Counted from the stretch's first letter, positions 4,546-45,609 are shown. The stretch is 64,000 bases of DNA from an uncultured Candidatus Saccharibacteria bacterium (GCA_964430335.1 CAYSEN010000001.1:1653-65652), one strand, 5' to 3'. Program-made: numbers and translations. Notes: generated from the letters alone by a model not told the origin.

Positions 4546-4618
4546 GCGCCCATAGCTCAGTTGGTAGAGCACCTGCCTTTTAAGCAGAGGGTCGTAGGTT
4601 CGATTCCTACTGGGCGCA
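4546..4618 (+). tRNA. tRNA-Lys (anticodon UUU)
   Basis: Cloverleaf read by eye: acceptor GCGCCCA/TGGGCGC, D arm GCTC..GAGC, anticodon loop CTTTTAA, T arm GTAGG-TTCGATT-CCTAC. No encoded CCA. Confidence 0.95.
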
Positions 4619-4623
4619 CAAGA

Positions 4624-4655
4624 CGAAAAAATCCGGACTGCTCCGGATTTTTTCG
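4624..4655 (+). terminator. intrinsic terminator-like hairpin after tRNA-Lys
   Basis: cgaaaaaatccgga-ctgc-tccggattttttcg, a perfect 14-bp stem with A/T tracts. Confidence 0.7.
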
Positions 4656-4659
4656 TACC

Positions 4660-4705
4660 TGTGCGAGCCGGAGCCATGTTTCGCTACCAAGCGAAACGGG
4701 CGAGG
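4660..4705 (+). repeat. 46-nt direct repeat, copy 1 (contains hairpin GTTTCGC-TACCAA-GCGAAAC)
   Basis: Identical to 4899-4944: tgtgcgagccggagccatgtttcgctaccaagcgaaacgggcgagg. Confidence 0.95.
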
Positions 4706-4843
4706 CAAGGTCATGAAAATTTTCGAGTGGCGACGAGAAAATTATTCCTGACCACAGGCGAAATGACCAAGCAGGTCTAAATGACCTGCGTGTAGGAATC
4801 GAACGGCGGAGTATAAAATTTTCAGCAGAAAATTTTTCGAGCC

Positions 4844-4886
4844 GGTGACCAGACAAAACTTTTTGACGAAAAAGTTTTAGTCGAGG
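4844..4886 (+). repeat. conserved tRNA-trailer hairpin motif, copy A (GGTGACCAGACAA-stem/loop-TTAGTCGAGG)
   Basis: Shares both flanks with 62061-62105, while the distal stem differs by fully compensatory changes. Confidence 0.8.
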
Positions 4887-4898
4887 GAGATTTCCTAT

Positions 4899-4944
4899 TG
4901 TGCGAGCCGGAGCCATGTTTCGCTACCAAGCGAAACGGGCGAGG
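4899..4944 (+). repeat. 46-nt direct repeat, copy 2
   Basis: Identical to 4660-4705; 239-nt period. Confidence 0.95.
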
Positions 4945-5026
4945 AGGGGTCGCGAGTTTCGAGGCTGACGAGCCGAAGAAAACTTGTGACCACAAGAAAG
5001 TTCACTTAATGAACTATGTTTCTACC

Positions 5027-5428
5027 CTACTCCCTCCCAATCAAATAAACCCCGAGTAATTTTCTAAAATATTCCGTTTCGGGATTAAAACACGCTTCTT
5101 TTATATGCAATAAAGGATGTGACTCCGGTGAATACTCATAATGCGCTCGGATTTCTCCATCAATAAAAAGTCTAATGTGGTACTGAAAAATCTCTTTATC
5201 GATTTTTCTCATACTCAAAACCTCTCCGGGATCTTTCCATGCAATTTTTGCCAATTCAAAACCTTGGTCAAACAAATACGCCTCTAAATCCAATCTGTTG
5301 TAATTGGCGTTTAAATGACCTAGTAAATATTTTTGTCTGAAATCATGAAAACCCAATTTTTCAACCGTTCGTATGATCGGTGGCCAAACCTGATAGGCCA
5401 AATTCCAAAAGAATCGGATTTTTTCCAT
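5027..5428 (-). CDS. hypothetical protein
   Basis: 133-aa ORF with host-like composition, tightly packed upstream of the holA-like gene. No motif recognised. Confidence 0.5.
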   Translation of the reverse strand: MEKIRFFWNLAYQVWPPIIRTVEKLGFHDFRQKYLLGHLNANYNRLDLEAYLFDQGFELAKIAWKDPGEVLSMRKIDKEIFQYHIRLFIDGEIRAHYEYSPESHPLLHIKEACFNPETEYFRKLLGVYLIGRE

Positions 5429-9973: not shown

Positions 9974-11650
9974 ATGGTAATTCAATTTGACGAGGACAAA
10001 CAAAATCAAAAACTCGACACTCTCCGAAAAAAAGAAGAAGAAGACTTCGCAAAGGACACCGCTGAAAGACTTGGACTTGAATACATAAACCTAATTCTTG
10101 TACCCATAAACACCGAGGCACTAAAATTGGTGCCCGAGCAACAAGCCAGACAGGCGAAAATTGCCCCTTTTAACATTGTCGGAAAAAAAGTTCAGGTTGC
10201 AGTCTCCTCCCCCGAATCAAGCGCTACAGCAGAGGTTTTAGAATCACTATCGAAAAGCGGTTACAGCTTGATCGTGTTTGTAACAACTCACGAAAGCCTA
10301 GAAAAAGCTTGGGGCTACTACAAAGATCTTTCATACTCAACAGAATCGACCGCAGGAGCGCTCGACGTTTCAAGTGATGAAATCGGTCAGTTTCTATCTA
10401 AGGTACACTCCATTAAAGATATTGGTACCCTCATTGAAGATATACTTGCTCAGAAAAAAAGTTACAGAATCTCTCGCTTGATTGAGATCGTCCTTGCCGG
10501 AGCAATAGCAACACACGCTTCGGATATTCACATAGAACCAGAAGAAGGTTACGCAAGGCTCCGCTACAGACTTGATGGGGTTTTAAACGATGTTCTCAAA
10601 TTTGATAAGGAGACTTTTGACTTAGCCCTATCTAGAATCAAATTGCTTTCTGGTCTAAAGCTAAATGTTAAATCTGAAGCTCAGGACGGAAGATTTAGTG
10701 TAAAAATAAACGGTGATGATATTGAAATAAGAACCTCCCTGCTCCCAGGAGCTTACAGCGAATCAGTGGTAATGAGAATTCTTAACCCTAAATCGATCAA
10801 TGTGCCGATCGAATCGCTCGGCATTAACCCAAAACTTTTGGAAATTTTGCTACATGAAATTAGTAAACCTCACGGTATGATTCTCACCACAGGTCCTACA
10901 GGTAGCGGTAAAACTACAACGCTCTACGCTTTCCTTAAAAAAATTCACACTCCAGACATAAAGATTATTACGATTGAAGATCCTATCGAGTATCACTTAC
11001 CAGGAATTGTGCAAACTCAAACAAATTCTGAGAAGGGGTACACTTTCCTAGAAGGATTACGTAGCGCGCTTCGACAAGACCCAGACGTGATCATGGTTGG
11101 TGAAATCAGAGACAGCGAAACAGCTGAAATCGCAGTGAACGCCGCCGAAACAGGACACTTAGTGTTCTCTACTCTTCACACTAATACTGCAGCTGGTACA
11201 TTCCCACGCCTCGTAGACCTCGGAGTGAATCCAAAAACCATGGCCTCAGCAATCAATGTATCGATGGCTCAAAGATTGGTAAGAACCCTGTGCAAGGATT
11301 GTAAAAAAGAAGTTGCGATTACCGGAAAAGAAAAAACTCTGATTGATAACATCGTCGCCTCCCTTCCAGATCAAAGCGAAGTTACAAACACTGAAAAAAT
11401 GTGGGTTGAAAATGGTTGTGACAAATGCAATCACACAGGTTTTAAAGGAAGAGTCGGAATATATGAGGCAATTTTAATGAATGAAGTAATAGAAACCGTA
11501 GTAAGAGAAAATCCTAGTGAAAGAGAAATTCAAAAAGCTGCTCTACCACAAAAAATTCCGACAATGAAACAGGATGGAATCATAAAAGTCCTAAACGGTA
11601 CGACTTCCTTAGGAGAATTATCAAGAATAGTCGACCTAGAAAAAGAATAA
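9974..11650 (+). CDS. pilB: type II secretion/type IV pilus assembly ATPase (GspE/PilB family)
   Basis: Walker A GPTGSGKTTTLYA, Asp box, Walker B VIMVGEIRD, His box LVFSTLHTN, tetracysteine CKDC...CDKC. Confidence 0.85.
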   Translation: MVIQFDEDKQNQKLDTLRKKEEEDFAKDTAERLGLEYINLILVPINTEALKLVPEQQARQAKIAPFNIVGKKVQVAVSSPESSATAEVLESLSKSGYSLIVFVTTHESLEKAWGYYKDLSYSTESTAGALDVSSDEIGQFLSKVHSIKDIGTLIEDILAQKKSYRISRLIEIVLAGAIATHASDIHIEPEEGYARLRYRLDGVLNDVLKFDKETFDLALSRIKLLSGLKLNVKSEAQDGRFSVKINGDDIEIRTSLLPGAYSESVVMRILNPKSINVPIESLGINPKLLEILLHEISKPHGMILTTGPTGSGKTTTLYAFLKKIHTPDIKIITIEDPIEYHLPGIVQTQTNSEKGYTFLEGLRSALRQDPDVIMVGEIRDSETAEIAVNAAETGHLVFSTLHTNTAAGTFPRLVDLGVNPKTMASAINVSMAQRLVRTLCKDCKKEVAITGKEKTLIDNIVASLPDQSEVTNTEKMWVENGCDKCNHTGFKGRVGIYEAILMNEVIETVVRENPSEREIQKAALPQKIPTMKQDGIIKVLNGTTSLGELSRIVDLEKE

Positions 11651-13208: not shown

Positions 13209-13482
13209 TGTGTGCCGAAGAGAGAGATTGCGATCCAAAAAGGTTGAACCTTTTTGGATCTAAACACACATTTCACTCTGCATTTTGTGGGCTTGTGACC
13301 AGCATCAATCTCAAAGTTAAATATTTAGAATGATGGCTGCATTAAAATGTGGAGAATTTTCATCCAGCACAAATCACTTTGTGATGGATTAACCCTAAAT
13401 CGAAACTTGAGATTCTCCCGAACTCACGCTTCTCTTAACCTTCGCGGACTTTTATAAGGAGGTCCGCACCCCGTGAAATAGA

Positions 13483-13791
13483 TCAACCGCCTTGGCTGAC
13501 CCATCGCTTGGCGGCATCAAGAGCCTCTCCAGCGTTCTCGAAACAGACAATGTCCGTTTCGTTGTGCCAGAACTTAATCTGGTCTGTGGCGTTCGCCAGC
13601 GCATCCAGCACCTCGGCGTCCGTCACTATTTTTCGAGTCGGGTGTAAACCCCGACCGAAGAAGCGTTCGAAACAACCTTCGGAACCTCGAACGCCTGAAA
13701 TCTGGAATGTTCGGTCACCAACCTTCCATTCCAGAGATTTCCGATTCCCCTCCACCCAAATGCGGAGGAGGGCTAGTTGTGTGGTGTTCAT
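13483..13791 (-). CDS. hypothetical protein (high-GC island gene e)
   Basis: 102-aa ORF with island composition, same strand as the other island genes. No motif recognised. Confidence 0.55.
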   Translation of the reverse strand: MNTTQLALLRIWVEGNRKSLEWKVGDRTFQISGVRGSEGCFERFFGRGLHPTRKIVTDAEVLDALANATDQIKFWHNETDIVCFENAGEALDAAKRWVSQGG

Positions 13792-13816
13792 AATGAACAG
13801 GGTGTGGGGTAAAGCC

Positions 13817-14197
13817 CTACACCAACGAGATCAGACAGACCTCTTTTTCCGTCATGTCACCCATACACCCGTAAGGGCAGTGGCCCTTTGGGGTGACATC
13901 GTAATCGTAGGAGATTCCAATGTTGCCGCAAATGCAGCAGCCTCCTCCTGGGACCCACCACACACCGGCGATGGGTTGAAAAACTCCCGTAGGAGTCAGA
14001 TAGGCCAGGAGTCCTTCGGATTCCTGGCCGCTATAGACAAGACGCTTTTTTGCAGCGTCTAGCACGGGGACACACTCTTCCCCCTGTGTTACTGAGCCGT
14101 CGGCCCAGTAACAGACGTAGCGAGGAATCTCGTTCCTCGCCTGAAGAGAACGAAGCAATGCTTCGATCTCTTTTTTTGATTTTGTTGAACTACTCAT
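13817..14197 (-). CDS. hypothetical Cys-rich protein (high-GC island gene d)
   Basis: 126-aa ORF with clustered cysteines (GGGCCICG, HCPYGCMG). No family recognised. Confidence 0.55.
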   Translation of the reverse strand: MSSSTKSKKEIEALLRSLQARNEIPRYVCYWADGSVTQGEECVPVLDAAKKRLVYSGQESEGLLAYLTPTGVFQPIAGVWWVPGGGCCICGNIGISYDYDVTPKGHCPYGCMGDMTEKEVCLISLV

Positions 14198-14285
14198 AGA
14201 ATTTCATTTTCGAAAAATCAAAAACAAAATTCTATGAGTAGTGCTGAATACTGTCTTTAGATTTACCAACGTTTTGATAAACCCA

Positions 14286-14335
14286 ATAAACAGGAGAAGT
14301 TGTAACCGCAACTTCTCCAAACCTAACGACAATTT
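14286..14335 (-). repeat. island hairpin element, copy 1 (terminator-like)
   Basis: 10-bp stem ggagaagttg/caacttctcc with a 6-nt loop. ~50 nt near-identical to 16058-16109. Confidence 0.85.
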
Positions 14336-14481
14336 TTTCTCGGGATAGTCGTCCTTCCCATGACACTGCATGTCAGGCCACACCATTTAGAACGGTGGCA
14401 ACTTTCCAGCATTTTTCATGCCGGACTTTTACGCACTTCTGTTACGAAGGTGGTGCGATCCTTCGGATGTCTTTCCATCAG

Positions 14482-14805
14482 TCAGAGAGTGACGCGGATA
14501 GCCACAACCTCGTCGTCCGCACTGCATTTGAATATACCAAGTACCTGTTCAAGGCCGTTTGTGCGACGTTGAAAGTCTTGGTCATCATTTGCATTGTGAC
14601 GATTGGTGGCATTTTCATGCGCAGTCTTCGGGAAAAAACAAACGCAATAAACGCTGTCGTTCCAAAAACCTGAACATGAATCCTCATCACTCTCTCCCTC
14701 CAAAATCGCTTCTGGCACATAAGTGAAATCAAATGTACCGAAGGTATTTCGAGCAATCTTTATTGCCCGAATGATCTCAGAGGGATTAAGGCTAACTTCC
14801 TTCAT
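14482..14805 (-). CDS. hypothetical protein (high-GC island gene c)
   Basis: ATG at 14805 is preceded by GGGAGGAGAG at 7-nt spacing. The ORF-track version extends to 14874. Confidence 0.55.
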   Translation of the reverse strand: MKEVSLNPSEIIRAIKIARNTFGTFDFTYVPEAILEGESDEDSCSGFWNDSVYCVCFFPKTAHENATNRHNANDDQDFQRRTNGLEQVLGIFKCSADDEVVAIRVTL

Positions 14806-14923
14806 GGAAGCTCTCCTCCCACTTTTTTCACTGAAGTGGCAAACCGTCGAATGCAGTTCCGCCAAACAGCTCACGTTTTACGATAGGCAGTGAGGGCCTT
14901 TGAGAGACTGACGGTCTCTCAAA

Positions 14924-15853
14924 CTACTTGAGGTACTTCGTGAGCACCTCAACCACCCGCTCGACTGAAAGGGTCGAGCTGACACCCTGAGGGCTTCCGC
15001 CGATGGTCGGGGAACCTCCCCAACCCGGCTCGAGGGTCGCCAACTCGGCGAGCGCGGACTTGATGTCCGCGTACTTGCTGGCCTCGAAGGCGCAGATCGT
15101 GAACTTCCGGTGGGGCTCTCCCGCCCCGAGCCGAAAGCTCGGGTTGAGCGCCACCACGACCGGCGCCAGCGCATAGCCAACCGACGTGGCGGCGCGGTGC
15201 GTCGACTCGACGACCGCAATGCACCCGCCGGCACAAACCTCGTGCCGAATCGCTCCGCTCTCAAGAGCGGCGATCATGTCGGCGCGCTCGCGCTCAACCT
15301 GAGCGCGATAGTTGCCCGGCTCCTCGCCGGTCAACAACCACTTTTCCATAGTGGCGACCCGCTCCCCGAGTGGGATCTTGAAGTCCGCAACCGCCGCCGC
15401 AATCGCGGCGAGCGGTCGGGACGATTCGGCCCCTGCCGAGCTATCGTCCCACGGGCTGCCCCGGGTCGGGAGGGGTTTCGGGCCGGTGTACCCGCCACGT
15501 GCGAACTTGTCGGCGGCGGCAACCATACTGATCCGATCCATCGCGGACTCGAGACCTTCGCCCTTCGCCCGGATGTTGAAGATCGCCATCGCCCCAACAC
15601 TGTCGAGGTCGGCTCGCACAGTGACCAATGTCGCCCTCTCGGCCGGGATCTCTACCGTCAGCGCGGCCTCGATGGCCGAGCTGTTGGCGTCTCCTTCCGA
15701 TCCGTGCTGGGGGTCGAGGTTGTACACGCACCGAGCCGCAAGGCTCGGGACGGTCACCTCGATTCCGAACACCTGCCCGGACGAGAAAACCTTCTCGTTC
15801 GCCTCAGAGGCGGCCGGAAGATTGCGGGGATCCAGAATTGCAAAATGAAACAT
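14924..15853 (-). CDS. hypothetical protein, 309 aa (high-GC island gene b)
   Basis: Longest island ORF with sensible amino-acid composition, whereas overlapping frames are Arg/Pro/Gly-rich shadow ORFs. ATG at 15853 preceded by AGGTGA. Only a loose DHH/DHHA1-like motif spacing (RADLDSVGA ... GWGGSPTIGG). Confidence 0.65.
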   Translation of the reverse strand: MFHFAILDPRNLPAASEANEKVFSSGQVFGIEVTVPSLAARCVYNLDPQHGSEGDANSSAIEAALTVEIPAERATLVTVRADLDSVGAMAIFNIRAKGEGLESAMDRISMVAAADKFARGGYTGPKPLPTRGSPWDDSSAGAESSRPLAAIAAAVADFKIPLGERVATMEKWLLTGEEPGNYRAQVERERADMIAALESGAIRHEVCAGGCIAVVESTHRAATSVGYALAPVVVALNPSFRLGAGEPHRKFTICAFEASKYADIKSALAELATLEPGWGGSPTIGGSPQGVSSTLSVERVVEVLTKYLK

Positions 15854-16057
15854 TTTGTAATTCACCTATCTTCAAACAAAAGCAAAAAAATGTGACTATT
15901 TTGGTACACACTTATTTTGTTCTCACAAAACGCGGGTTTCTAAGTCGCGAATTGTGCCTGAATCGGATTTGTCGACAAGTGAGCGGGGGTCTAGACTGTC
16001 CCCATTCACCTGTCGAAACCAATTCGTGTCTACAGACTGGCAAAATTTGTCAGCCTG

Positions 16058-16109
16058 ATAAACAGGAGAAGTTGTAACCACAACTTCTCCAAAACCCGTG
16101 CGACAATTT
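16058..16109 (-). repeat. island hairpin element, copy 2
   Basis: Same stem as copy 1, with one loop difference (taacca vs taaccg). Flanks ataaaca... and ...cgacaattt are conserved. Confidence 0.85.
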
Positions 16110-16158
16110 ATCCATTTTGTGGAATAGGAAGTCGCCCTTCCTTTGTTGTTGGTCTGGA

Positions 16159-16557
16159 CTAGCGATATGTTGCATCTTTCCAGACTGTAAAACTACGACC
16201 TTCCGCGGTCGTAGTTTCGATGATCTGGTGACCGGGAGCTTCCCCGGTCTCAGCCAGAACCTCCTCATCCAGGCATTCCATCCTGGATGAAAGAGTGGTC
16301 AGCCGGAGATTCCCGGCCACGGCGAGTTTCTCGAACTCGCCGTTCATCTCGCGCAACTGCGCGAGACAGTAAGCCAGATGTTCTGGCGCATCTTCGACGC
16401 CTGTAGCATCGACCGATATCTCCGGACCGCACAGGCAGTCCGGAGATGTCTCATTCAGAAAGAGCAACTGCCCCCTCCGAACGAACCACAATTTCATTTT
16501 CATAAAATTGTAAAAAGGATGGTACCGCCAGCCAACATGGCCAGCGAACAAATACAA
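16159..16557 (-). CDS. hypothetical protein (high-GC island gene a)
   Basis: ORF of 114-132 aa. Start ambiguous: TTG at 16557 or ATG at 16503 (MKMKLWF...). Confidence 0.5.
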   Translation of the reverse strand: MYLFAGHVGWRYHPFYNFMKMKLWFVRRGQLLFLNETSPDCLCGPEISVDATGVEDAPEHLAYCLAQLREMNGEFEKLAVAGNLRLTTLSSRMECLDEEVLAETGEAPGHQIIETTTAEGRSFTVWKDATYR

Positions 16558-17189
16558 TCCCTCTTTCCGGCACTAAGTAAATCTAACGCCGGAGAAGAGG
16601 AATAACATTGCGGTTATTGCTTTGGCAAAATTTGTTCCGCCTTACTCCTTCCTCTCTATTTAGTTTTCAAATTACTTCCCTACTCTACCTATCACTTTCC
16701 GCAACTCGCGGACTTCCTGGTGTAAGGACATTTTGAAGTACAAAGTGGGTTAGACTTTACACTTCATCGATGTCCTGACGAGCCTTCTCGTCGACAACGG
16801 GCGATGAGTTTACCTTAAAGGTATATCTCCGTCATTTGGAATGGGTTTCGAAGCCAGACCATATGTAGAGCACTCATCATTCGAAACGAGATATTCAAAA
16901 GGCTGCCTCTCTCCCCACTCTCTCTTCTTTCCATACTTAGCCGCTTTCGCGGAGGCTATGGGACCTTCCCTTTCGGGCTAGAGGTGGGGGGCAATCTTTC
17001 GGCTATCTCCTGAACGAACTTGACTTTCTGGCAATAGAATATCTTAATTAGATAGCGAGTGTCAATTATTTATGACATAAAATGGCCGGTTATTGCAAAA
17101 TCTAGTAACAACATGGATTTTATGGCTTATCCACATATTACTATTGTCATATACTTGTGACAAAAACAGCTTTATGCTAGACTAAAAGT
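16558..17189. other. ORF-free, hairpin-dense region with strong purine/pyrimidine strand asymmetry (candidate leader/ncRNA or island end)
   Basis: No ORF of 60 aa or more. Helices at 16725-16776, 16777-16792 and 16941-16952. 26/27 pyrimidines at 16906-16932. DnaA box at 17127-17135. Confidence 0.4.
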
Positions 17190-26402: not shown

Positions 26403-27503
26403 TTATTTGTTCATTGGCATCACGAGGTAGGTAAACATCTTATCGGACACTCCTCTAATCACCACGGGCCTATTAGGGCCTGAGAACGACAAGCTAATAC
26501 TGTCTGTGTCTATTGATTGCAAACAATCATTTATATATCGGAAATTAAAATTCACTTCGTTGGACTCCCCTGTCATGGCCGAATCAATTAAGGTCGTGTT
26601 TTCACCTAAGGTTGTGTTTTTTGTGGTTAGTTGGAATTTCTTCTCAGAAGGTGCGATATTTAAATTGATTTGGTTAAAGGCGTCTGAAAAGATAGTACTG
26701 ATTTTTAAGGCTCTTATTAAATCTTCTTTTAAGACAACAACTTCGGTTTTAAACTCTTTAGGGATAATCTGTTGGTAATCAGGAAAAGCTCCTTCAATCA
26801 ATCTTGAGGTTAAGTAGGTACCTCCAAAAACAAAAGCGATTTGATGTTTGTTAAAACGAACTTCTATTGATTGAGGATTTTTCTCTAAAATCCTCATGAT
26901 TTCTGCAATATTTTTAAAAGGGATTAGAATCTTCTCGAATTCCTTACCAATTTTAAATTTTATTTTCTTTTCTGCTAGTCTAAATGAATCGGTCGCAGCA
27001 AAGACTACGTTATTATCATCTGAATAAACACAAACACTCGATAACTCTGGCTTGATACTTGAATTAGAAGAACTGTAAGACACAGACTTTAACCCCTTCA
27101 CAAAATCATGAGATTCAATTTCGAAAGACTGTTCGTTTGAGATCTCAGGGATAGTTGGAAAATCTTCTGAAGAAAAACACTTTATATTACTTTTACTTTT
27201 GTTGGAGGTGACAGTAAGAGTCAGCTCGTTACTCTCGAGTTTTATGTTTTTTTCATTAGAGATACTAGAAACAATAGAACTCAAAACATTTGCTGGAACA
27301 GCCAAAACACCCTCTTCATCAACCTTTGCCGGTATCGAGCTTTGGAAACCTAGGTCTAGGTTAGTGGACCTGATTTGTAGTAAACCTTTTTTAGCTTCAA
27401 TAAGTACACAAGAAAGCACTGGTAAGTTTAAATTCTTTCCAGCTATTTTCTCTGCTTGGTTTAGAACTTCCTGCAATTTGTTCTGTACACATTCTACTTT
27501 CAT
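26403..27503 (-). CDS. dnaN: DNA polymerase III beta sliding clamp
   Basis: 366 aa with a three-domain clamp profile, C-terminal YLVMPM, immediately downstream of dnaA. Confidence 0.9.
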   Translation of the reverse strand: MKVECVQNKLQEVLNQAEKIAGKNLNLPVLSCVLIEAKKGLLQIRSTNLDLGFQSSIPAKVDEEGVLAVPANVLSSIVSSISNEKNIKLESNELTLTVTSNKSKSNIKCFSSEDFPTIPEISNEQSFEIESHDFVKGLKSVSYSSSNSSIKPELSSVCVYSDDNNVVFAATDSFRLAEKKIKFKIGKEFEKILIPFKNIAEIMRILEKNPQSIEVRFNKHQIAFVFGGTYLTSRLIEGAFPDYQQIIPKEFKTEVVVLKEDLIRALKISTIFSDAFNQINLNIAPSEKKFQLTTKNTTLGENTTLIDSAMTGESNEVNFNFRYINDCLQSIDTDSISLSFSGPNRPVVIRGVSDKMFTYLVMPMNK

Positions 27504-27710: not shown

Positions 27711-29057
27711 TTAAAGCATTGTTCTAATCTGGTCTAATTCCTGGCTAAGACTCGTGTCCATTTTCAACTCCTCTTTAATCTTTTCACATGAATGAATCAC
27801 TGTTGTATGGTCTCTGCCTCCTAATTTCTGACCAATCAAAGGATAAGATATTCTGAAATCCTCTCTTAAGATGTACATTACAAGCTGTCTTGGTTTTACT
27901 ACTTCTTTTCTTCGGGTTTTTTCATAAATATCCGCTTCTTCTATGTTAAAGAAGCTTGCCACAGCCTTTGTTACTTCTTTAACCGAAATCGCTTTTTTAG
28001 GTTTCGCACTGTTTTTTATCAGATTTCTGACTTCAGCAATACCCAACTCTCTACCTTTGAGTTGAGATTGGCAGATTAGTACGTTTAGCATACCTTCAAG
28101 TTCTCGAATGTTTCCCTCAAGAGAGTTGGCTAGGTGATCTAAAACATCTTCTGAAACAGACACAGAAGACATCTGAGCTTTGGTTTTAAGAATAGCCAAC
28201 CTTGATTCCCTATCAGGTGTAGGAATGTCTACTATCATACCCGCAGAAAATCTGGATTTTAATCGGTCTTCTAGATTTTGAATGTAATTTGGATGCTTAT
28301 CAGATGAGAATACAATCTGCTTGTTACTTTCGTGCATAGTATTGAACAAATGGAACAACTCTTCCTGGGTTTTTTCTTTGTTTGAGAAGAATTGAATATC
28401 GTCCATGATTAAGATGTCATACTTTCTGTATTTATCCTTAAAAACATTGATTTTATTGGCTTGTACGGCGTTGATGTAATCTATGGCGAACTTCTCTGAG
28501 GTCACGTAAAATATTTTTTTACTAGGGTTTTGTGCCCTAGCGTAATTGCCTATAGCTTGTATCAAGTGAGTTTTACCGTGCCCTGTGTTTCCGTAAATAA
28601 ATAATGGGTTGTACACACTTCCTGGTTTTCTTGCCACAGCCTGAGCGGCGGCATGAGCCAATTCATTAAAAGGTCCAACAACAAAAGACTCAAACGTGTA
28701 TTTTGGATTTAAGTTGTTCTCTTTATCAACATACACATCCTGTAGGGGTAACTCAGCGGTAGGACTTGGTTGTTGACTTCTCGCATTCTCCGCTTCCCTT
28801 CTCTTGCCGTCATCCTTAGTGATTATGTATTCGAGCGCCCTTGTGTGCTCGTCGAGGTTTCTTAAGGACTTTAAGATTGTTTTGTGGTATTTGTTGAATA
28901 GCCAATCCTTAGCGAAGGCGTTTGGTACTGATATGAATACCACACCATCGTCTCTTTTGATTATCCTTGTATCCTTAAACCATGTGTTAAAGTTGGCTTT
29001 TGATACCGTCAGTTCGATTTCTCCTAGTACATTATTCCAGAGTTGCTCATTTTCCAT
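27711..29057 (-). CDS. dnaA: chromosomal replication initiator DnaA
   Basis: GNTGHGKTHL Walker A, IMDDIQF Walker B, and the C-terminal DNA-binding signature GGRDHTTVIHSCEKI. Confidence 0.95.
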   Translation of the reverse strand: MENEQLWNNVLGEIELTVSKANFNTWFKDTRIIKRDDGVVFISVPNAFAKDWLFNKYHKTILKSLRNLDEHTRALEYIITKDDGKRREAENARSQQPSPTAELPLQDVYVDKENNLNPKYTFESFVVGPFNELAHAAAQAVARKPGSVYNPLFIYGNTGHGKTHLIQAIGNYARAQNPSKKIFYVTSEKFAIDYINAVQANKINVFKDKYRKYDILIMDDIQFFSNKEKTQEELFHLFNTMHESNKQIVFSSDKHPNYIQNLEDRLKSRFSAGMIVDIPTPDRESRLAILKTKAQMSSVSVSEDVLDHLANSLEGNIRELEGMLNVLICQSQLKGRELGIAEVRNLIKNSAKPKKAISVKEVTKAVASFFNIEEADIYEKTRRKEVVKPRQLVMYILREDFRISYPLIGQKLGGRDHTTVIHSCEKIKEELKMDTSLSQELDQIRTML

Positions 29058-29730: not shown

Positions 29731-30456
29731 ATGATAAGCCATATATTTAACCTAGTGTTTTACCAGCCGTTGTATAACGGCCTCATTCTTTTGATGGATC
29801 TTATTCCTTGGGCTGACGCGGGGGTCTGTGTTGTTATTTTTACAATACTGGTTAAGCTCGCCCTATTCCCTATTTCCCAGAAGGCCACAATCACTCAGCT
29901 TAAATTAAAGGCTCTAGAACGCGACTTAGCTGAGCTCAAGGAAAAGCATAAGGATGACAAAGAGGCTTACACTAGAGCCACTCTAGCTTTTTATAAAGAA
30001 AAGGATGTTAATCCATTCTCGACTTTTTTCCTCACCTTAATTCAAATACCTATAATTTTAAGTCTTTACTACATTTTTTACAGCGGAGGATTACCTGTGG
30101 TTGATAAAGCAATCCTATATTCTTTTGTTAAGGTTCCTGAGGTTGTCATGCACTTTTTAGGGTTTATAGATATTACACATGGTAGTATTTATCTAGCAGT
30201 TTTGGTTGCCGTCAGTCAGTATTTCCAAATTAAATTTTCAATGCCAGATCAAAAACCTCACACCCCTGGCACTTCAATGAAAGATGATTTTGCAAAGGTT
30301 CTAAATTTACAAATGAGATATTTCTTACCAGCTTTTGTAGGAGTCATTGCCTACAATATTTCTGGCGCCGTCTCTCTTTATTGGATCACTAGCAATCTTT
30401 TTGCCATAGGTCAGGAAATTTATGTAAGAAAGTCCTTTTTAAAAAGAACAACATAA
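29731..30456 (+). CDS. yidC: YidC/Oxa1-family membrane insertase (short form)
   Basis: Multi-TM 241 aa with the amphipathic region ISQKATITQLKLKALERDLAELKEK. Synteny with rnpA and jag. Confidence 0.8.
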   Translation: MISHIFNLVFYQPLYNGLILLMDLIPWADAGVCVVIFTILVKLALFPISQKATITQLKLKALERDLAELKEKHKDDKEAYTRATLAFYKEKDVNPFSTFFLTLIQIPIILSLYYIFYSGGLPVVDKAILYSFVKVPEVVMHFLGFIDITHGSIYLAVLVAVSQYFQIKFSMPDQKPHTPGTSMKDDFAKVLNLQMRYFLPAFVGVIAYNISGAVSLYWITSNLFAIGQEIYVRKSFLKRTT

Positions 30457-30465
30457 ATAAAATCT

Positions 30466-30954
30466 ATGCCTTTAGATAACACGGTTGAAATCATAAAGAA
30501 TATTCTAGGTTTAATGGGTTTAAGGTTTGATTCGGTGGAGAAGGTTGAAGATTCGAAATCGAATTATTTTAAGTATTTAATAAAAACAGAAGAATCGGGA
30601 GTATTGATAGGTCCAAACGGAGCGAATCTAGATGCTTTAAATTACTTAGTACGAAAAATTGTTAGTAAGCAAAATGGCGACGAAACCTCAGCTAAGTTCT
30701 CTATTGATGTGAATGGATATCACGATAAAGCCCTTGAGTCCTTGAAGACTAAGGCAAAAATAATGAGCGACAGAGCCAAATCTTTTAAAATTGATGTAGA
30801 ACTAGACCCTATGTCGTCTTACGAGAGAATGATCGTTCACTCACACCTCGAAGGTGTTCCAGAAATTAAAACCGAATCAATCGGTGAAGGTTCTAGTAGA
30901 AGAGTGGTAATAAAATATATCGGAGCTGTCTCGAATCCAGAGAAATTTATTTAA
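30466..30954 (+). CDS. jag: Jag/KhpB-like RNA-binding protein (KH + R3H)
   Basis: R3H region SSYERMIVHSHLEG...RRVVIK. Position after yidC. Confidence 0.75.
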   Translation: MPLDNTVEIIKNILGLMGLRFDSVEKVEDSKSNYFKYLIKTEESGVLIGPNGANLDALNYLVRKIVSKQNGDETSAKFSIDVNGYHDKALESLKTKAKIMSDRAKSFKIDVELDPMSSYERMIVHSHLEGVPEIKTESIGEGSSRRVVIKYIGAVSNPEKFI

Positions 30955-32192
30955 TTTGATCCGAGTCTAAGGCTCCAGATATGATAATCAATTTTGTTGG
31001 TTATCATTAGGTAATCTTCTTTAGGGCTAAGCATGAGGTTCATTCCGTCTATATCTTTCTTAGCGTAGTCTTTCAATCTCAATAGTAATTCCCCTGATCC
31101 GGTATCCGTATTTATTTTCCATATTTCATCTGAAAACAAAACTTGTCCTTTATACCAAGAGTCCGGGTACAAACCTTGCGGAATATATGATGGAACACTG
31201 CAATAGATAATTTCTTGGTTATTCTTTGACCAGACACATTTTTCTGGGAATGTAGAAACTGGCGTGTCGGTTACCTTCCCTGTTTTGAAGGAATAGATCT
31301 TAAAATTTATTCCACCTGATGTGCTTTCCGAATAAACTGCGCGCTCGCCTTTCAAATCAGTTTTAGTGGTCAGTCCATTTATGTTAGATATCGCCTTTGT
31401 TAATTGGCCGTTTTTAGCATTTAGCATAAACATTACCCCACCGGCGCCTGCAGATGGTTTCGATGTTATTGTGATAATGTTTGAGCTAGGCCAATCAACT
31501 AGCCACTCCGTAAGTGGTGAATCAAAAATTTGTGTCCTTTTAGCGTTATCAAAATCTGCCACAATTCCGTTACTGCCAACCGAACTCTGGAGTAAATAAA
31601 AGATTTTATCTTTGTCTGGGTTGATTGTGATTGATTTGATATTTTCCGCCATAAAATTACCACCCAAAGCACCGTCTGGATGATCAGAGTTTTTGTCCTG
31701 TATGTAGGCGTTGTATGACTTTATGTTATCGCTATCATCCTCCGCGTATCTTATTATTATTTTCTTCCCTGTTTTGTCCCAAATCGCTTCTTCGATTTTT
31801 GGAATGGTCGTGTTGGTCACTCGATCCTCGGCGTCATTTTGGGGACTAACATTGTATACATTACCTGTCCCTTTTTCTATAAAGCTAACAATAATATTTG
31901 ACGAACTCGCCGTGATTGTCGCTCCTGCAATCGGTCTGGTTGAGAGTTCTTTTAAAACAGGGATAAACGCGTTTCCTGTCGGTGTTTCGCTCTGGCTGGG
32001 TGTGCTAGTACCGATGTTTGTTTCTGGGCTGGGATTCTCACCTCCTGGGAAGGGGTTTTCGATTTTAGGGTTTTGGTTTTGGTTTGAATCTACCTTATTG
32101 TTATTTTTTGTATAAAAATAGAAAACAAGCAGGCCTCCTGAAACCAGAAGCAAAACCAAAATAATTATGATGATAGCGGTTTTTTTAGACAT
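30951..32192 (-). CDS. membrane-anchored hypothetical protein, beta-propeller-like body (last gene of T4SS-like operon)
   Basis: N-terminal TM helix, a low-complexity linker, then repetitive beta-rich sequence. Stop overlaps the jag stop by 4 nt. Confidence 0.55.
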   Translation of the reverse strand: MSKKTAIIIIILVLLLVSGGLLVFYFYTKNNNKVDSNQNQNPKIENPFPGGENPSPETNIGTSTPSQSETPTGNAFIPVLKELSTRPIAGATITASSSNIIVSFIEKGTGNVYNVSPQNDAEDRVTNTTIPKIEEAIWDKTGKKIIIRYAEDDSDNIKSYNAYIQDKNSDHPDGALGGNFMAENIKSITINPDKDKIFYLLQSSVGSNGIVADFDNAKRTQIFDSPLTEWLVDWPSSNIITITSKPSAGAGGVMFMLNAKNGQLTKAISNINGLTTKTDLKGERAVYSESTSGGINFKIYSFKTGKVTDTPVSTFPEKCVWSKNNQEIIYCSVPSYIPQGLYPDSWYKGQVLFSDEIWKINTDTGSGELLLRLKDYAKKDIDGMNLMLSPKEDYLMITNKIDYHIWSLRLGSN

Positions 32193-33287
32193 TTAATTAT
32201 TTGGCCAATTTCTGCAACTAAGTAGAATATGACTCTTGCCAGATGTCTGACCTGTTTGATCCGCACAAGCCTTTTTAATAATTTCGATTGTTTCATCGGC
32301 TTTTTTTCTTATTGCCTTTGCTAGCTCTGGGTCACTATACTGATTATTTGCCCTACTTATTGCGGCGACAGCTTCATTGTCTACCGTTCTCATCATCTCG
32401 TTGGCAATCTTAGAGTTCCCTTTGTTTATATCGTTGAAGGCTATGAACGGAGCGGTAATATTTAAATTTTGAAATTTATCTAACTCCAATTTTTTAGCAG
32501 CGGGCTCGTCATTGAACCTAAGCATGTCTTTTATTTCGTTGTTAAAACTACCAATCATTAATTTTTGATAGCCTGACGCATTTTGAGCACTATCAGCAGA
32601 CAGGTCATTTACCGTCTGATTAACAGCAAGTCTCCTATTCATTTCTATTGCTTTTTGTGATTCCATTTGCAACGCGTCTTTTTCCAGTTTATCAGCTGCG
32701 TCCCTCATGGCCACATAAGATTCTGGACTGGTTGCCTGATCCATTTGAGACCGGATCTGATTAGCCGTGGCCTTCTTTTCATCGGCGGTTTTTGTTACGT
32801 CAGCAACTTCTTGTCGCAATTTAGTATAAAGATTATCGAGGGTTTGAAGATCTGTCGGAGCCAGAATTTCTTTACCAGCCTTTGCCTGCTTCCAGAATAG
32901 AAAATTCATACTCACGAGCGTTGGGTCAATGGTATACAAAATAATGTAGGAAGTAAGAGCAAGTATAAGCCCTCCAATAGCTCGCTCTATTCTCGCCTTC
33001 CCTTCCTCTTTTCCTGTAATAGCGTCGGTCGATAGGTATTCAAAACCGCCAAGAACTATCATTAAGAATGCCAAAATACCTGCTAAAGCAATCCCGACTT
33101 TAAATGAACCAATTAAATAAACAGAAAGGTTGGTAGCACATGGTGGAGTGGCACAGTTGGGCGTCGTGCCTGGGATAGGCGCAAGTGGTACATAGTCAGC
33201 TGCCGAGAGTGTTAAAACTGGTAAAAGAAAAAAACTTAGGATTAGCAGAGTTTTAAATAGGCTGTTTTTTATTTTTTTTAATCGCAT
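32193..33287 (-). CDS. TrbC/VirB2-like T4SS pilin candidate with long C-terminal extension
   Basis: Signal peptide, then two hydrophobic helices (GIALAGILAFLMIVLGGF; AIGGLILALTSYIILYTI) in a pilin-like arrangement, then a ~230-aa helical tail. Confidence 0.5.
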   Translation of the reverse strand: MRLKKIKNSLFKTLLILSFFLLPVLTLSAADYVPLAPIPGTTPNCATPPCATNLSVYLIGSFKVGIALAGILAFLMIVLGGFEYLSTDAITGKEEGKARIERAIGGLILALTSYIILYTIDPTLVSMNFLFWKQAKAGKEILAPTDLQTLDNLYTKLRQEVADVTKTADEKKATANQIRSQMDQATSPESYVAMRDAADKLEKDALQMESQKAIEMNRRLAVNQTVNDLSADSAQNASGYQKLMIGSFNNEIKDMLRFNDEPAAKKLELDKFQNLNITAPFIAFNDINKGNSKIANEMMRTVDNEAVAAISRANNQYSDPELAKAIRKKADETIEIIKKACADQTGQTSGKSHILLSCRNWPNN

Positions 33288-33292
33288 TTTAT

Positions 33293-34306
33293 TTAAAATT
33301 GAACCTCACTTGTTTTTCCAAAACTCAAAGAGATGTCATTTGCTGCCATTTGGAACATCTTATCTGGGTTTGAAATTTGAAGGCTTACAAAGGATACACC
33401 TTTTGTGTCTTTGTCTTGCCTAAAAATTAAAGTGCTTTTGTTACCAGAATTTACAATGTTGCCATTTTGTCTCCATTCATATTTCAAATTATTACCTTCC
33501 CTCTCTTTTGCGCCAATAAAATATGGAATACCGACAATGCTTATTTCAGATTGACTAAGTACTGTATTGCTACTTAAGGCTCTGTTGTACTGTATTCCAT
33601 ATATAGGACTGTTTTCATAAAACAAGAGTTGAGGCAGTTGAGGTGCTAGGGAAATTGTTTTTGAAGCGTTGTATTTTTTATCTAACGTGGACACATCTAC
33701 TGATATTTTAACTGTGTTTGGCAACGTTCCGCCAGTGTAAATCATGTAATTTTTACCTAAACCTGAGGCTTGGGAAACTGCATCTCCGTCTATTGACCAC
33801 GTGTATACTAGATTTTTAGAAGATTCCTGAACGCCTCCGATAACAATGTTTGGCACTGCGACAATCTTAACACTCCCCTGCATTGGATAGATGGCCTTAC
33901 CTTTATAGAAAGGAGGTGTATAGGATTGTGCCTCCCAAATCAAATCCACATTTGCCGGGTTAATGTTTAGAGTTTGTTGGTATGATTGCCCATTCTTGTC
34001 TTTTATTAAAACAAGAATGTTTGTACTGCTACCAATGGGGCCAGTTTTAAACATTAATGTTTTGTCACCAGTGGCCTCCTTTTCTAGTTGACCGTTAATG
34101 AACCAAGATATTTCAGTTCGGTTTAAATCAATTGCATAGCTCTCCAAATTAACTTTAACGAATTGGTTTGGTCCGGGATAAGTAGGATCAGTGGTTATCA
34201 GTATGTTGTTTGAACTTCCAGAACCGCCTAATACTTGAAGGTCGGCAAATGATACTAAAGGTAATAAAAATAAAGCTATGAGAAATGTGATTGAAACAGG
34301 TTTCAT
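33293..34306 (-). CDS. secreted hypothetical protein
   Basis: Signal peptide MKPVSITFLIALFLLPLVSFA; beta-rich. In-operon. Confidence 0.55.
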   Translation of the reverse strand: MKPVSITFLIALFLLPLVSFADLQVLGGSGSSNNILITTDPTYPGPNQFVKVNLESYAIDLNRTEISWFINGQLEKEATGDKTLMFKTGPIGSSTNILVLIKDKNGQSYQQTLNINPANVDLIWEAQSYTPPFYKGKAIYPMQGSVKIVAVPNIVIGGVQESSKNLVYTWSIDGDAVSQASGLGKNYMIYTGGTLPNTVKISVDVSTLDKKYNASKTISLAPQLPQLLFYENSPIYGIQYNRALSSNTVLSQSEISIVGIPYFIGAKEREGNNLKYEWRQNGNIVNSGNKSTLIFRQDKDTKGVSFVSLQISNPDKMFQMAANDISLSFGKTSEVQF

Positions 34307-34333
34307 GTACTAATATTTTATCACAGAAAAAAA

Positions 34334-35236
34334 TTATTCAGTTAAGCTGTTTTCCTCATCTTCTTTAGCCTTTTTTCTTTGACCGTAAGAGAGAGATAAA
34401 TCTAGCAAATTACTTCTAAACTTTAAGGCGTCTTTGCTTTTTTGCCTCTCCTCGTTGTTTGCGCTCCCCCTTAGGTCTAGGCTGTTAGGATCTGAAGCGT
34501 CATCTTCCGCCCCTTGGTCAGAATTATTGTTACTATAACTTCTGCTTTCACGACTGGTCTGCCTTCTCGAGGTTTTTTGTTTCGGTGTGCTGTTTCTGTT
34601 GTTTTGATTTTCCTCCCCGATTGCTCCTTCATTGTTGTCTCCCAATTCACCACCATCTGAGTCTCCGTTTTCTTGATCATCATCCCCCTCCTCATCTTCG
34701 TCATCTAATTCCGGAGGAACGGATTCGTTTTCTGCCACCTCACCCGCTAGAGAGGCTCCTTCGGCACCAGCACCTACTTCTGCCCCTACCCCAGAGGCCA
34801 CAGCTCCTTCAGCTGCCAAAGAAGCACCTCCTGTTTCAGGAGCCAAAGCCACAGCTCCGGCAGCCACCGCGACTTTTGCAATTTTTGCTAATTTCTTTTC
34901 AGCTTCTACGGAAGCGTACATTACAATCCCGTCTAAAAACCAAAATGGCATCGCGTCTACGTCAGGAATCTCTTCTAGTAAAAACCCTAAACTGACAGTT
35001 AGTATTTTAGGTGCGTCAAAATTTACTCCTCTTAAATATAGATATGTCGGCCAAGCAAGTCCTGTAGCGAAGCTAATAAAACGATTCAAGAGTGTCCCTA
35101 CAGTTGCTATGAAAGGAATTCCAATCCAATCCAACACAAATTGGGCAATATCAATAATGCCGAGAATGGATATAACCATTCCCCACTCTAGTTTGCTGAT
35201 GTTTGGGCCACTTTTTTTAGCTTTTTTCTCGGCCAT
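34334..35236 (-). CDS. membrane protein with Ala/Gly-rich then highly acidic disordered tail
   Basis: Three to four TM helices in the first 120 aa. The tail contains DDEDEEGDDDQENGDSDGGE. Confidence 0.55.
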   Translation of the reverse strand: MAEKKAKKSGPNISKLEWGMVISILGIIDIAQFVLDWIGIPFIATVGTLLNRFISFATGLAWPTYLYLRGVNFDAPKILTVSLGFLLEEIPDVDAMPFWFLDGIVMYASVEAEKKLAKIAKVAVAAGAVALAPETGGASLAAEGAVASGVGAEVGAGAEGASLAGEVAENESVPPELDDEDEEGDDDQENGDSDGGELGDNNEGAIGEENQNNRNSTPKQKTSRRQTSRESRSYSNNNSDQGAEDDASDPNSLDLRGSANNEERQKSKDALKFRSNLLDLSLSYGQRKKAKEDEENSLTE

Positions 35237-35248
35237 TTGCTAAGGGTT

Positions 35249-37066: not shown

Positions 37067-37070
37067 ATTT

Positions 37071-37721
37071 TTATTTAACTTGAATTGGCTTTTCGGTGTC
37101 ACCCGGATTAAATATTTTGTAGAAAAGTTCCACCACCTCTTCTGTTCCGAGCAAAACTGCTCTAATACCACATCTCATAAGTCCTTGTTCTACAACGGAA
37201 ATTCTCTGTAGCAGTTGGCTTCGGCTCTCCTCAAATGCATCTTGTTTTCTCTGCGATTTTTCAACCGCTTCTTTTCTGGTCAAGAATTTTCCTGCTAATT
37301 CTATCACTCCCCCTTTGGCTTGGAGAGGTGCTGGAGCGTAGGGTATGACAACAAAAAAGGTCTTAGTCATAATGCTCGTGCTTTCTGTAAAATTTTTGAT
37401 GAATTCTATGTACTCTCTTGTTTGAGTTTTCATCAGATCAGTCGTCTGGTTTTTGTAGGTCTCTTCTAGGAGTGCAATATATGGTCTGATATCCAATTTT
37501 CTCGATTCGATAAATAGTTGCACGGAAAAATCTAGAGAATTTAGAAAGTTCTGGAATTGCAATATGATAGCGTTTTGGTTGTCCTCAGACTTTAGTGCAA
37601 AGTTTAAAGACGAAGTCATGACTATTCCACGAAACGAGCCGTCTCTAAGCACGACAATACCGTCCCGAACCTCTTTGATCGGTACGAATTCTTGAGTCGC
37701 CTTAGAACTTTCTGTCGCCAT
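37071..37721 (-). CDS. VirB4 N-terminal-domain-like protein (split from ATPase domain)
   Basis: FVPIKEVRDGIVVLRDGSFRGIVMTSSLNFALKSEDNQNAII resembles the N-terminal region of VirB4/TrbE proteins. 216 aa + 605 aa matches full-length VirB4 size. Confidence 0.6.
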   Translation of the reverse strand: MATESSKATQEFVPIKEVRDGIVVLRDGSFRGIVMTSSLNFALKSEDNQNAIILQFQNFLNSLDFSVQLFIESRKLDIRPYIALLEETYKNQTTDLMKTQTREYIEFIKNFTESTSIMTKTFFVVIPYAPAPLQAKGGVIELAGKFLTRKEAVEKSQRKQDAFEESRSQLLQRISVVEQGLMRCGIRAVLLGTEEVVELFYKIFNPGDTEKPIQVK

Positions 37722-37771
37722 GCCTTGTATTATAACTTAGATTGCGATTGTTATTAACGATTTTTCTGTGC

Positions 37772-38200
37772 CTATCTATTTTCCATAGTCTCTTTTACTC
37801 CTGGATTCTGAGTGTCATTTATATCAAGGCTCCATGTGAGATCCTTGAGTTTGCTATCAGATAACTTTGGAACATATAGAGGTGACTGTGACTCCACTTC
37901 TTCTTTGTGCTGAGGTTTCTTCTCAGTTTTCTTCCAAATATAGAGCTTGTCAGTGAAAAAATATTTAAATGCTGCTTCAACCACAAAGACGAAAGGACGA
38001 TTGTTAACCTTGTATAGCGCTAAAGCAAGGGAAAATGCTATTACTGGAGCCATTAAAAATATGGCGATATAAAAGTTTAGGTAATGGTATATTATAAATG
38101 AAAGACCTGCCCCACCAGCAAGATAGACAAATTGTTTGACCGTAAAAGGGCCGAAAATTTTGTCTTCAATTTCTATGAATTGTGGAACTTGGAATCTCAT
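37772..38200 (-). CDS. PrgI-family / VirB3-like small T4SS membrane protein
   Basis: MRFQVPQFIEIEDKIFGPFTVKQF followed by two TM helices. Position directly upstream of virB4. Confidence 0.65.
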   Translation of the reverse strand: MRFQVPQFIEIEDKIFGPFTVKQFVYLAGGAGLSFIIYHYLNFYIAIFLMAPVIAFSLALALYKVNNRPFVFVVEAAFKYFFTDKLYIWKKTEKKPQHKEEVESQSPLYVPKLSDSKLKDLTWSLDINDTQNPGVKETMENR

Positions 38201-38208
38201 TTGTTTTT

Positions 38209-40038: not shown

Positions 40039-40050
40039 AAATCAATTTTT

Positions 40051-43188: not shown

Positions 43189-43194
43189 GATTCC

Positions 43195-45564: not shown

Positions 45565-45609
45565 GAAAAACTCCGTTACCCAAAAATAATTTGGATAACT
45601 TTGTGTAAA

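Follow-up and report, generated by a model that had tools for sequence, protein, structure and literature searches.

A non-coding element with a three-way-junction core, bracketed by copies of the neighbouring tRNA 3′ end, in the tRNA flanks of Paceibacteria

A hairpin motif that occurs twice in the window (the whole stretch of 64,000 nucleotides analysed here) is only one helix, P3, of a larger three-way-junction core, and the most distinctive feature of this core is that it is bracketed by an antisense and a sense copy of the 3′ portion of the neighbouring tRNA. The elements built in this way share one layout, fold preferentially on the tRNA strand, stand behind tRNAs of many isotypes and are found in several copies per genome; orthologous sites are empty or filled, and the filled ones carry different cores. 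We think it somewhat more probable than the contrary that the motif, P3 together with its junction, marks small non-coding elements of one multi-copy family that have settled in the tRNA 3′ flanks of Paceibacteria and are mobile and selfish. Paceibacteria are ultra-small bacteria of the candidate phyla radiation (CPR) with tiny genomes.

The motif and the elements in the window

The pattern GGTGACCAGACAA-N(15-40)-TTAGTCGAGG matches the window exactly twice, at 4844-4886 (+) and at 62062-62106 (+), and none of 100 dinucleotide-preserving shuffles of the window contained a match. The initial annotation had described such a pair, with identical flanks and with distal stems that are unrelated yet paired, and this description is borne out; its coordinates hold for copy 1 and were off by one base for copy 2, given there as 62061-62105. 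The loops read GACG in copy 1 and GGCG in copy 2. The distal stems, AACTTTTT/AAAAAGTT (8 bp) and TCTACAAAC/GTTTGTAGA (9 bp), have no sequence kinship and pair perfectly, with hairpin z-scores of −2.3 and −4.8. According to ARAGORN, copy 1 lies 225 nt 3′ of tRNA-Lys(UUU) and copy 2 lies 85 nt 3′ of tRNA-Arg(UCG), each co-oriented with its tRNA as first reported. Directly 5′ of both motifs is a box, CGAGCCGG or CGAGGCGG; this CGAG(C/G)CGG box had been noticed before, and its nature is now apparent, namely the 3′ strand of a second helix, P2.

The core measures ~106 nt and the whole element, which is non-coding, ~110-190 nt. Folded at minimum free energy, each window copy forms a three-way junction, which pairing of the arms closes as helix P1; the z-scores are −2.7 and −5.9. 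When copies are lined up, the unit reads tRNA, spacer or hairpin X, antisense acceptor 3′ strand, GAG-hpA-CGT, antisense T-stem 3′ strand and T-loop (e.g. GTAGGAATCGAAC), P2, GGTGA junction, P3 and B′. The consensus of P2 is N1N2N3-C-GGAR, a hairpin (hp1) with an AGNN loop, and YGAG-N3′N2′N1′; B′ repeats the T-loop and the 3′ strand of the T-stem in sense orientation and runs on for a variable distance through the acceptor strand, the discriminator and sometimes CCA. The unpaired nucleotides GGTGA, a bulged A and GA are invariant in the core, and the palindromic, near-universal T-loop sequence TTCGAA borders every core on both sides. The T-loop itself is replaced by the junction in the element, and pairing of the anti-acceptor frequently reaches beyond the discriminator. 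Many copies have a terminator-like hairpin between tRNA and element, so transcription of the element may be weak.

In the first trailer, tRNA-Lys(UUU) (4546-4619, +; ARAGORN, and Rfam tRNA at 75.6 bits) is directly followed by a terminator-like hairpin X (4626-4653, +) made of an A-tract, a GC stem and a T-tract, a layout that relatives share. Next comes a divergent "type-6" relative of the core (4654-4761, +; 33.8 bits and E=1e-5 with the covariance model R1 described below), which reads GCCGGAGCC-hairpin-GGCGAGG and then a second hairpin with the end TGACCACAGG; its module is also found behind tRNA-Arg in L112, L102 and L097. The hairpin hpA (CAGGTC-TAAAT-GACCTG; 4772-4788, +), recognised by sequence, stands 5′ of the antisense T-arm copy, in the position of the GAG-hpA-CGT module of other copies. 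That antisense copy, antiT (GTAGGAATCGAAC; 4792-4804, +), is reverse-complementary, without a mismatch, to the tRNA-Lys T-loop and T-stem 3′ strand (GTTCGATTCCTAC) and folds as the 5′ strand of P1. Helix P2 (4804-4843, +; CGG-C-GGAG, hp1 with loop AGCA, CGAG-CCG), defined by RNAalifold and pair counts, includes the CGAGCCGG box. The motif (4844-4886, +), defined by fold and covariation, supplies the junction GGTGA and P3, which runs CC-A-GAC-AA, the 8-bp distal stem, loop GACG and TT-A-GTC-GA-GG. By sequence and fold, B′ (4887-4905, +) is the 3′ strand of P1, a degenerate sense copy of the tRNA-Lys 3′ portion (GAGATTTCCTATTGTGCGA vs GATTCCTACTGGGCGCA). A second copy of the 46-nt type-6 P2 module at 4899-4944 (+), a direct repeat of 4660-4705 (94% in the repeat search; R1 match at 4907-4944), opens a third, partial element. 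The trailer holds three elements in series: type-6 (4654-4761), type-1 and partial type-6 (4899-5000).

The host gene of copy 2, tRNA-Arg(UCG) (61905-61977, +; ARAGORN and Rfam tRNA), is followed by antiB (TGCTCCCGGAGGGATTCGA; 61995-62013, +; inverted repeat I5), a 19-nt perfect reverse complement of tRNA-Arg from T-loop to acceptor 3′ strand. Its bases at G·U positions are complementary to the 3′ strand, which shows that it is no copy of the tRNA-Arg 5′ strand. P2 (62014-62061, +) consists of CGC-C-GGAG, the hairpin CCAGACTC-AGCA-GAGTTTGG with one G·U pair, and CGAG-GCG; the motif (62062-62106, +; z=−4.8) adds the junction and P3, with its 9-bp distal stem and loop GGCG. P1 is closed, as judged by sequence and fold, by B′ (TCGAATCCCT; 62107-62116, +), a short sense copy (10 nt) of the tRNA-Arg T-loop and T-stem 3′ strand identical to 61958-61967. 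From 61995 to 62117, the complete element has a folding energy of −59 kcal/mol (z=−5.9).

A "type-2" element lies behind tRNA-Gly(GCC) at 62264-62386 (+; z=−5.4). It comprises a partial anti-acceptor, hpA (62278-62296), antiT (62299-62311) and the core CCCGATTGAG-hairpin-CAATTGGGG-TACTGA-hairpin, after which the tRNA-Gly 3′ end is perfectly repeated over 18 nt (62369-62386 = 62247-62264). The same core type stands behind tRNA-Arg in L059, L100, L123, L066, L070 and L067. Over 62192-62417 the order is tRNA-Gly(GCC), the type-2 element of ~105 nt, the 18-nt repeat and only then a terminator (62393-62417), and both 3′ copies could complete the tRNA.

Base pairing of the element is under selection

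RNAalifold predicts 28 pairs from 43 copies, 20 of them with compensatory changes. In P2 the base triplets covary (six Watson-Crick combinations plus G-U), and GGAG/CGAG alternates with GGAA/TGAG. A covariance model (R1), a check that the initial annotation had suggested, was built from this alignment and recovered 13 further copies in loci fetched without use of the motif. These have variant flanks (GGTGCCC.., GGC/GCC for GAC/GTC, CA/TG for AA/TT), so the helix through the "invariant" flanks covaries too. The extension of the helix by GAC/GTC past the bulged A and by AA/TT, as initially proposed, is accordingly seen in divergent homologues, whose flank pairs include GGC/GCC, CA/TG and G-U intermediates. 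Among 27 model-aligned copies, 13 of them found without exact flanks, 96.5% of cells are paired, a value somewhat inflated because the alignment was fitted to the model, and 26/28 pairs change on both sides; none of 500 shuffles reached the observed value, and slid controls gave 33-45%. With covariation across at least 70 copies, the early suggestion of a selected RNA or single-stranded DNA structure stands. Covariation was also sought for a loop-loop pairing of hp1 with the TACT mini-hairpin, and none was found.

Which strand folds? The fold of the + strand, that of the tRNA, is the more stable in 45/45 copies and contains 63 G·U pairs, vs 21 on the − strand. Thus, the folded strand is the tRNA strand; the G·U asymmetry is equally compatible with RNA and with single-stranded DNA. 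Orthologous copies behind tRNA-Asp (L025, L033, L042, L049) and tRNA-Ser (L005, L032) have kept all their hairpins across species by compensatory changes, a hint that they may serve the host and are not purely selfish.

The structure matches no Rfam family. At the gathering thresholds of Rfam 15, only tRNAs pass in the window and 18 relatives; at gathering and permissive thresholds, only tRNAs were found in the window, the trailers and 28 related loci, and no match was found in L003 or in nine orphan loci. The models covered tRNA, tmRNA, group I and II introns, self-cleaving ribozymes, HEARO, IS605-orfB and RT-associated RNAs. The best sub-threshold match was RT-11, with 20 bits vs the 143.5 needed, and Hammerhead_II was also far below threshold. 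By eye, likenesses to the hairpin ribozyme, the hammerhead, the sarcin-ricin loop, the T-box and the k-turn/C-D box are superficial. A full-text literature search found no description of the element. The motif could thus not be assigned to a known family, as the initial annotation had said, and is no annotated mobile-element end, the identity it had named as fatal to its own reading.

tRNA-derived arms, hosts and turnover

When one genome per species was scanned for the exact flanks, in a slightly trimmed form of the pattern, 57 loci were found; the motif is not confined to its two window copies. All but one locus come from Patescibacteria-type metagenome-assembled genomes (MAGs), labelled Paceibacteria, Nomura-, Taylor- or Moranbacteria or else mislabelled bins, with at most four exact-flank copies per MAG. 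The match in L037 is GC-rich, forms no hairpin and is of the kind expected by chance, and a search of viral contigs for the motif gave no match. A co-oriented tRNA lies upstream of 39/59 copies, mostly 78-133 nt off, and 13 isotypes are represented; most copies without an upstream tRNA lie at contig ends, and tRNA and element are co-oriented in every tRNA-adjacent case. Elements follow 76/247 tRNAs in the fetched loci, about a third in a sample biased towards carriers. The tRNAs that carry them differ between species, and near-identical cores stand behind different isotypes (L008, L027, L019). A tRNA-linked multi-copy element, present or absent between species, is in keeping with the REP-like or recombinase-site idea voiced initially. 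Upstream of the element, L002 has a structured-looking stretch of ~260 nt (4770-5030), and L003 (7400-7560, −) and L035 (1050-1150, −) have a conserved sequence ending ..AGTGGCCCGCCA; none of these was recognised as a tRNA or Rfam family.

Matches of at least 9 nt to the tRNA 3′ end are found downstream of 52/73 tRNAs in antisense and of 46/73 in sense. The sense repeat measures 9-20 nt (in the window, 18 nt for tRNA-Gly and 10 nt for tRNA-Arg), begins within the T-loop and has a far end that varies between the T-stem and a point 49 nt downstream. That the 5′ arm is complementary to the 3′ strand of the tRNA, and no copy of its 5′ strand, is evident at G·U positions and rules out a degenerate duplicate tRNA gene. 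The antisense T-loop tracks the T-loop of the host gene (AATCGAA/TTCGATT, ACTCGAA/TTCGAGT, ACTTGAA/TTCAAGT). Inverted repeats that extend into the tRNA end by 4 nt or more are present in 27/76 element-bearing tRNAs (36%) vs 8/171 others (5%) and in 0 shuffles; long palindromic terminators native to these tRNA genes generally are ruled out by this difference. GTGCG recalls the 5′ end of group II introns (GUGCG) only superficially, since it tracks the last bases of the tRNA and is an antisense copy.

Where B, the 3′ portion of the gene, and B′ differ, it is B that completes the tRNA (7/7 pairs) and that the anti-acceptor matches, and B′ shows truncation or decay; a B′ in this state beside an intact tRNA is frequent. 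CCA follows the discriminator in 15/54 B′ vs 5/54 adjacent genes (discordant pairs, 11 vs 1), against a baseline of 20% among element-free tRNAs, an excess that simple local copying does not predict. That B′ copies the mature tRNA is unsupported as a general rule, because the repeat passes the tRNA end in L010, L025, L038, L066, L070, L123 and L129. Among the non-redundant tRNA genes of all fetched loci, 157/247 have CA directly after the discriminator and 43/247 (~17%) encode the full CCA, which is rarer in element-bearing genes (8/76) than in others (35/171). The arms do not match the local gene in L003 and L035, and unit 2 of L039 has the complement of a canonical, not the local, T-loop. 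Truncated or orphan copies are L008 (5′-truncated), L051 and L053; the orphan in L053 has perfectly paired arms, with an 11-bp pairing of anti-acceptor and acceptor, and no tRNA nearby.

Turnover is visible at one orthologous site. With the CCA-adding enzyme adjoining tRNA-Arg as anchor, we recovered 80 metagenome loci, which keep the order CCA-enzyme, tRNA-Arg(UCG), tRNA-Gly(GCC), tRNA-Pro. The Arg-to-Gly spacers fall into two classes, 40-90 nt without an element and 140-360 nt with elements, and ~24/54 distinct orthologous tRNA-Arg spacers are empty. The filled ones follow the same arm logic with different cores, of types 1, 2, 4, 5 or 6. Type 1 is the motif-bearing core, and type 2 reads CCCNATTGAG-hairpin-CNAATNGGGG-TACTGA-hairpin; in the window, type 6 is also present at 4654-4761 and from 4899, and type 2 at 62264-62386. 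Mixed tandem arrays occur in L025, L039, L002 and L061, and none of the cores of types 1, 2, 4, 5 and 6 is in Rfam. Since one and the same site may lack an element or hold one of at least five core types, the elements turn over. An ORF of ~220 aa adjoins the tRNA genes in ~25/80 relatives, upstream or downstream of tRNA-Arg (L137 2211-2810; L127; L059; L058; L130; L109; L095; L033 4152-4694), and is absent from the window. Its product has an N-terminal HTH, the only part that Pfam sees, and a conserved "LFIAG..YWGEG" that may be LAGLIDADG-like; it looks like a free-standing homing-type gene.

Possible origins and likeness to known systems

How might the element spread? It would be selfish, riding on read-through transcription that starts at the tRNA promoter. 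Pairing of the two arms (P1) would close the junction, neutralise the antisense segment and let the upstream tRNA fold, and would give the RNA an end resembling the tRNA acceptor/T helix. The palindromic T-loop sequence (TTCGAA) could be the place where recombination or a switch of template leads to gain, loss and exchange, and local copying, by fold-back or by gene conversion between adjacent direct and inverted repeats, may keep the arms matched to the neighbouring tRNA. As we identified no mobilising enzyme or donor intermediate, the mode of movement is one that we infer entirely, and so is the active form, RNA or single-stranded DNA.

The element units contain no ORFs, and the trailers sit between housekeeping genes. 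Comparison of 32 window ORFs with Pfam or NCBIfam revealed no transposase, RT, Cas or integron-integrase signature; the remaining ~20, including PolA, MurE-like, Fpg and RuvB, were judged by reading their translations only. Neither tnpB nor iscB was found next to any of the three window trailers. A YraN gene lies at 62774-63175, and dnaN (26403-27503), dnaA (27711-29057) and yidC (29731-30456) are clustered; the chromosomal replication origin is probably in the window, near 29.1-29.4 kb. Elsewhere, a GC-rich island at 13400-16600 (up to 62% GC vs ~39% elsewhere) has minus-strand ORFs without a Pfam match, among them that of a 313-aa protein at 14924-15865, and a bracketing 36-nt, hairpin-containing direct repeat (14286-14321 / 16058-16093), and is probably foreign DNA. 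A long minus-strand block at 30951-46584 holds large ORFs without a Pfam match, of up to 1045 aa (38209-45564), and is adjoined by a TraG/VirB4-like ATPase (35249-37171); a type IV pilus/secretion ATPase lies at 9974-11650.

Could DNA recombination account for the same layout? In one such explanation, which we regard as unlikely, the element is a single-stranded DNA site akin to integron attC or the CTX-phage attP hairpin: antisense arm, core and sense arm would together form a hairpin with a stem like the double-stranded 3′ end of the tRNA gene, a Xer-/IntI-like tyrosine recombinase or a HUH enzyme would recombine it with the T-loop region, and tandem units would be gene-less cassettes. Hairpin-by-duplex single-strand exchange predicts exactly the observed order tRNA(A-B), X, antiB, core, B′; arrays of antiB-core-B′ units resemble cassette arrays; covarying stems accompany sequence drift, as they do in attC; and the core borders ATTCGAAC and GTTCGAAT fit RYYYAAC / GTTRRRY at 6/7 positions by eye. 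A Xer-type recombinase gene, the only one for a tyrosine recombinase in the window, does lie 3 kb away (58134-59072), but it scores as housekeeping XerC/D and, with 129 bits, falls below the integron-integrase cut-off of 265. Moreover, attC has conserved R″/R′ (RYYYAAC/GTTRRRY) and L boxes at its ends and a variable centre, the reverse of the element, and a T-loop crossover between isotypes would give chimeric tRNAs, yet near-identical cores stand behind different isotypes. If the origin adjoins dnaA/dnaN (26.4-29.1 kb), the two copies, a sample of two only, lie on opposite replichores and both follow the tRNA orientation, which argues weakly against a lagging-strand single-stranded DNA mechanism. 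Scars of integrase-driven islands or prophages, integrated in tRNA genes and later deleted to leave attL/attR remnants, would explain direct repeats of the tRNA 3′ end around foreign DNA, the hallmark of such integrations. We nevertheless reject this explanation as barely credible, contradicted as it is by the layout, the covariation and the viral-contig null: the targets span 13 isotypes, an antisense copy of the tRNA end is present, the internal hairpins are conserved and covary, unit size and layout are the same everywhere, and neither viral-contig matches nor integrase remnants were found.

Other explanations place the activity in an RNA. A host-beneficial tRNA-linked RNA, pairing in cis or trans with the 3′ half of the neighbouring tRNA or mimicking it, might be a processing or quality-control signal of read-through precursors, a decoy for an enzyme or toxin that binds tRNA 3′ ends, or a minihelix-like RNA that RNase P, RNase Z and the CCA-adding enzyme bring to maturity. 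The upkeep of hairpins and junction nucleotides by compensatory change in orthologues across species speaks for it, as do the alternation of conserved modules with target-matched segments, as in guide RNAs, the CCA enrichment of B′, the unfailing tRNA co-orientation and the 11-bp pairing kept by the orphan in L053. However, only a subset of tRNA genes (76/247 in the fetched loci) carries elements, a subset that differs between species; ~24/54 orthologous tRNA-Arg spacers are empty, core types replace one another at the same site, B′ is often decayed beside an intact tRNA and terminators often precede the element, and a benefit to the host is in our judgement rather improbable. In an intron-like element or ribozyme in the T-loop, the tRNA body could pair with either 3′ copy, and the stretch from the first copy to the end of the core would be an insertion at position 59/60, cut out by self-catalysis or by an enzyme, with B′ as the 3′ exon. 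This would fit the fixed T-loop point at which the sense repeat begins, the commoner CCA in B′ than in the upstream copy, the invariant unpaired nucleotides (GGTGA, bulged A, GA), as in catalytic RNAs, and the abundance of tRNA introns in Patescibacteria (PMC13011429), a report that concerns group I introns of the anticodon loop. It is very unlikely, given that an intact tRNA precedes every tRNA-adjacent copy, that B′ of both type-1 window copies cannot complete a tRNA, that a terminator often lies inside the would-be intron and that no Rfam ribozyme or intron model matches. The element might, lastly, be a new kind of tRNA-programmed mobile RNA, with anti-acceptor and anti-T-arm, set between conserved hairpins, and B′ as guides or self-templates, a decidedly speculative idea. 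The RNA would either guide a trans-acting enzyme to tRNA genes or undergo, through a core that is a catalytic or processing RNA of a new sort, a T-loop "alternative 3′-exon" rearrangement; the surplus of CCA in B′ would in that case be the trace of an earlier stage as matured RNA.

If the elements are selfish, as we slightly favour, they are compact mobile elements that borrow their ends from an essential gene, and much of the structured, GC-rich intergenic DNA that lacks annotation in CPR genomes would be explained by them. A function would instead point to an unknown layer of tRNA 3′-end biology in organisms that still await cultivation. Either way, annotators can use the covariance model to recognise a widespread feature absent from Rfam, and empty and filled orthologous sites make the mechanism directly testable in metagenomes.

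Of the systems already described, the attC sites of integrons and the attP hairpin of CTX phage are likewise imperfect palindromes that preserve structure over sequence, fold strand-specifically and form tandem arrays, and the layout equals the product expected from their hairpin-by-duplex exchange. In contrast to attC, the element is conserved at its centre and variable at its ends, which copy a tRNA gene; it has neither IntI nor cargo genes, and its hosts are CPR bacteria. From tRNA-targeting integrative elements it differs in its size of 110-190 nt, the lack of an integrase, the single core family behind 13 isotypes and the extra antisense copy of the tRNA end, whereas both show a direct repeat of the tRNA 3′ end starting in the T-loop, leave the tRNA intact and include units that supply a terminator. 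The end hairpins of IS200/IS605 and the omega-RNAs of TnpB and IscB also set a multi-hairpin scaffold beside flank-derived, target-matching sequence (here B′ after and antiB before) and are strand-specific, but the element matches neither IS605-orfB nor HEARO in Rfam, has no TnpA, TnpB or IscB nearby, and both its flanks match the same target, in opposite senses. With tRNA-like structures (viral TLS, mascRNA, the tmRNA domain) it shares an acceptor and T-stem helix, sometimes ending in discriminator and CCA; unlike them, it has a junction in place of the T-loop, no D or anticodon domain, a 5′ strand that is a perfect complement with G·U identity pairs lost, and no match to the Rfam tRNA or tmRNA models. 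A typical minihelix would combine a 12-bp stack of acceptor and T stem with an intact T-loop and a single-stranded NCCA end. REP/BIME, Correia, RUP, ERIC and Rickettsia palindromic elements differ in having fixed inverted repeats rather than arms copied from the adjacent tRNA; the element also shows no fixed-length target-site duplication, keeps strictly to tRNA 3′ flanks and has a three-way-junction core with covarying hairpins. Among the 32 window ORFs compared with Pfam or NCBIfam, no cognate transposase such as RAYT or that of an IS parent was found. Like them, it is intergenic and hairpin-forming, probably transcribed with its neighbouring genes, and, as expected of MITE/REP-like elements, short, non-coding, multi-copy and polymorphic between genomes, as the palindromic families are present or absent between strains.
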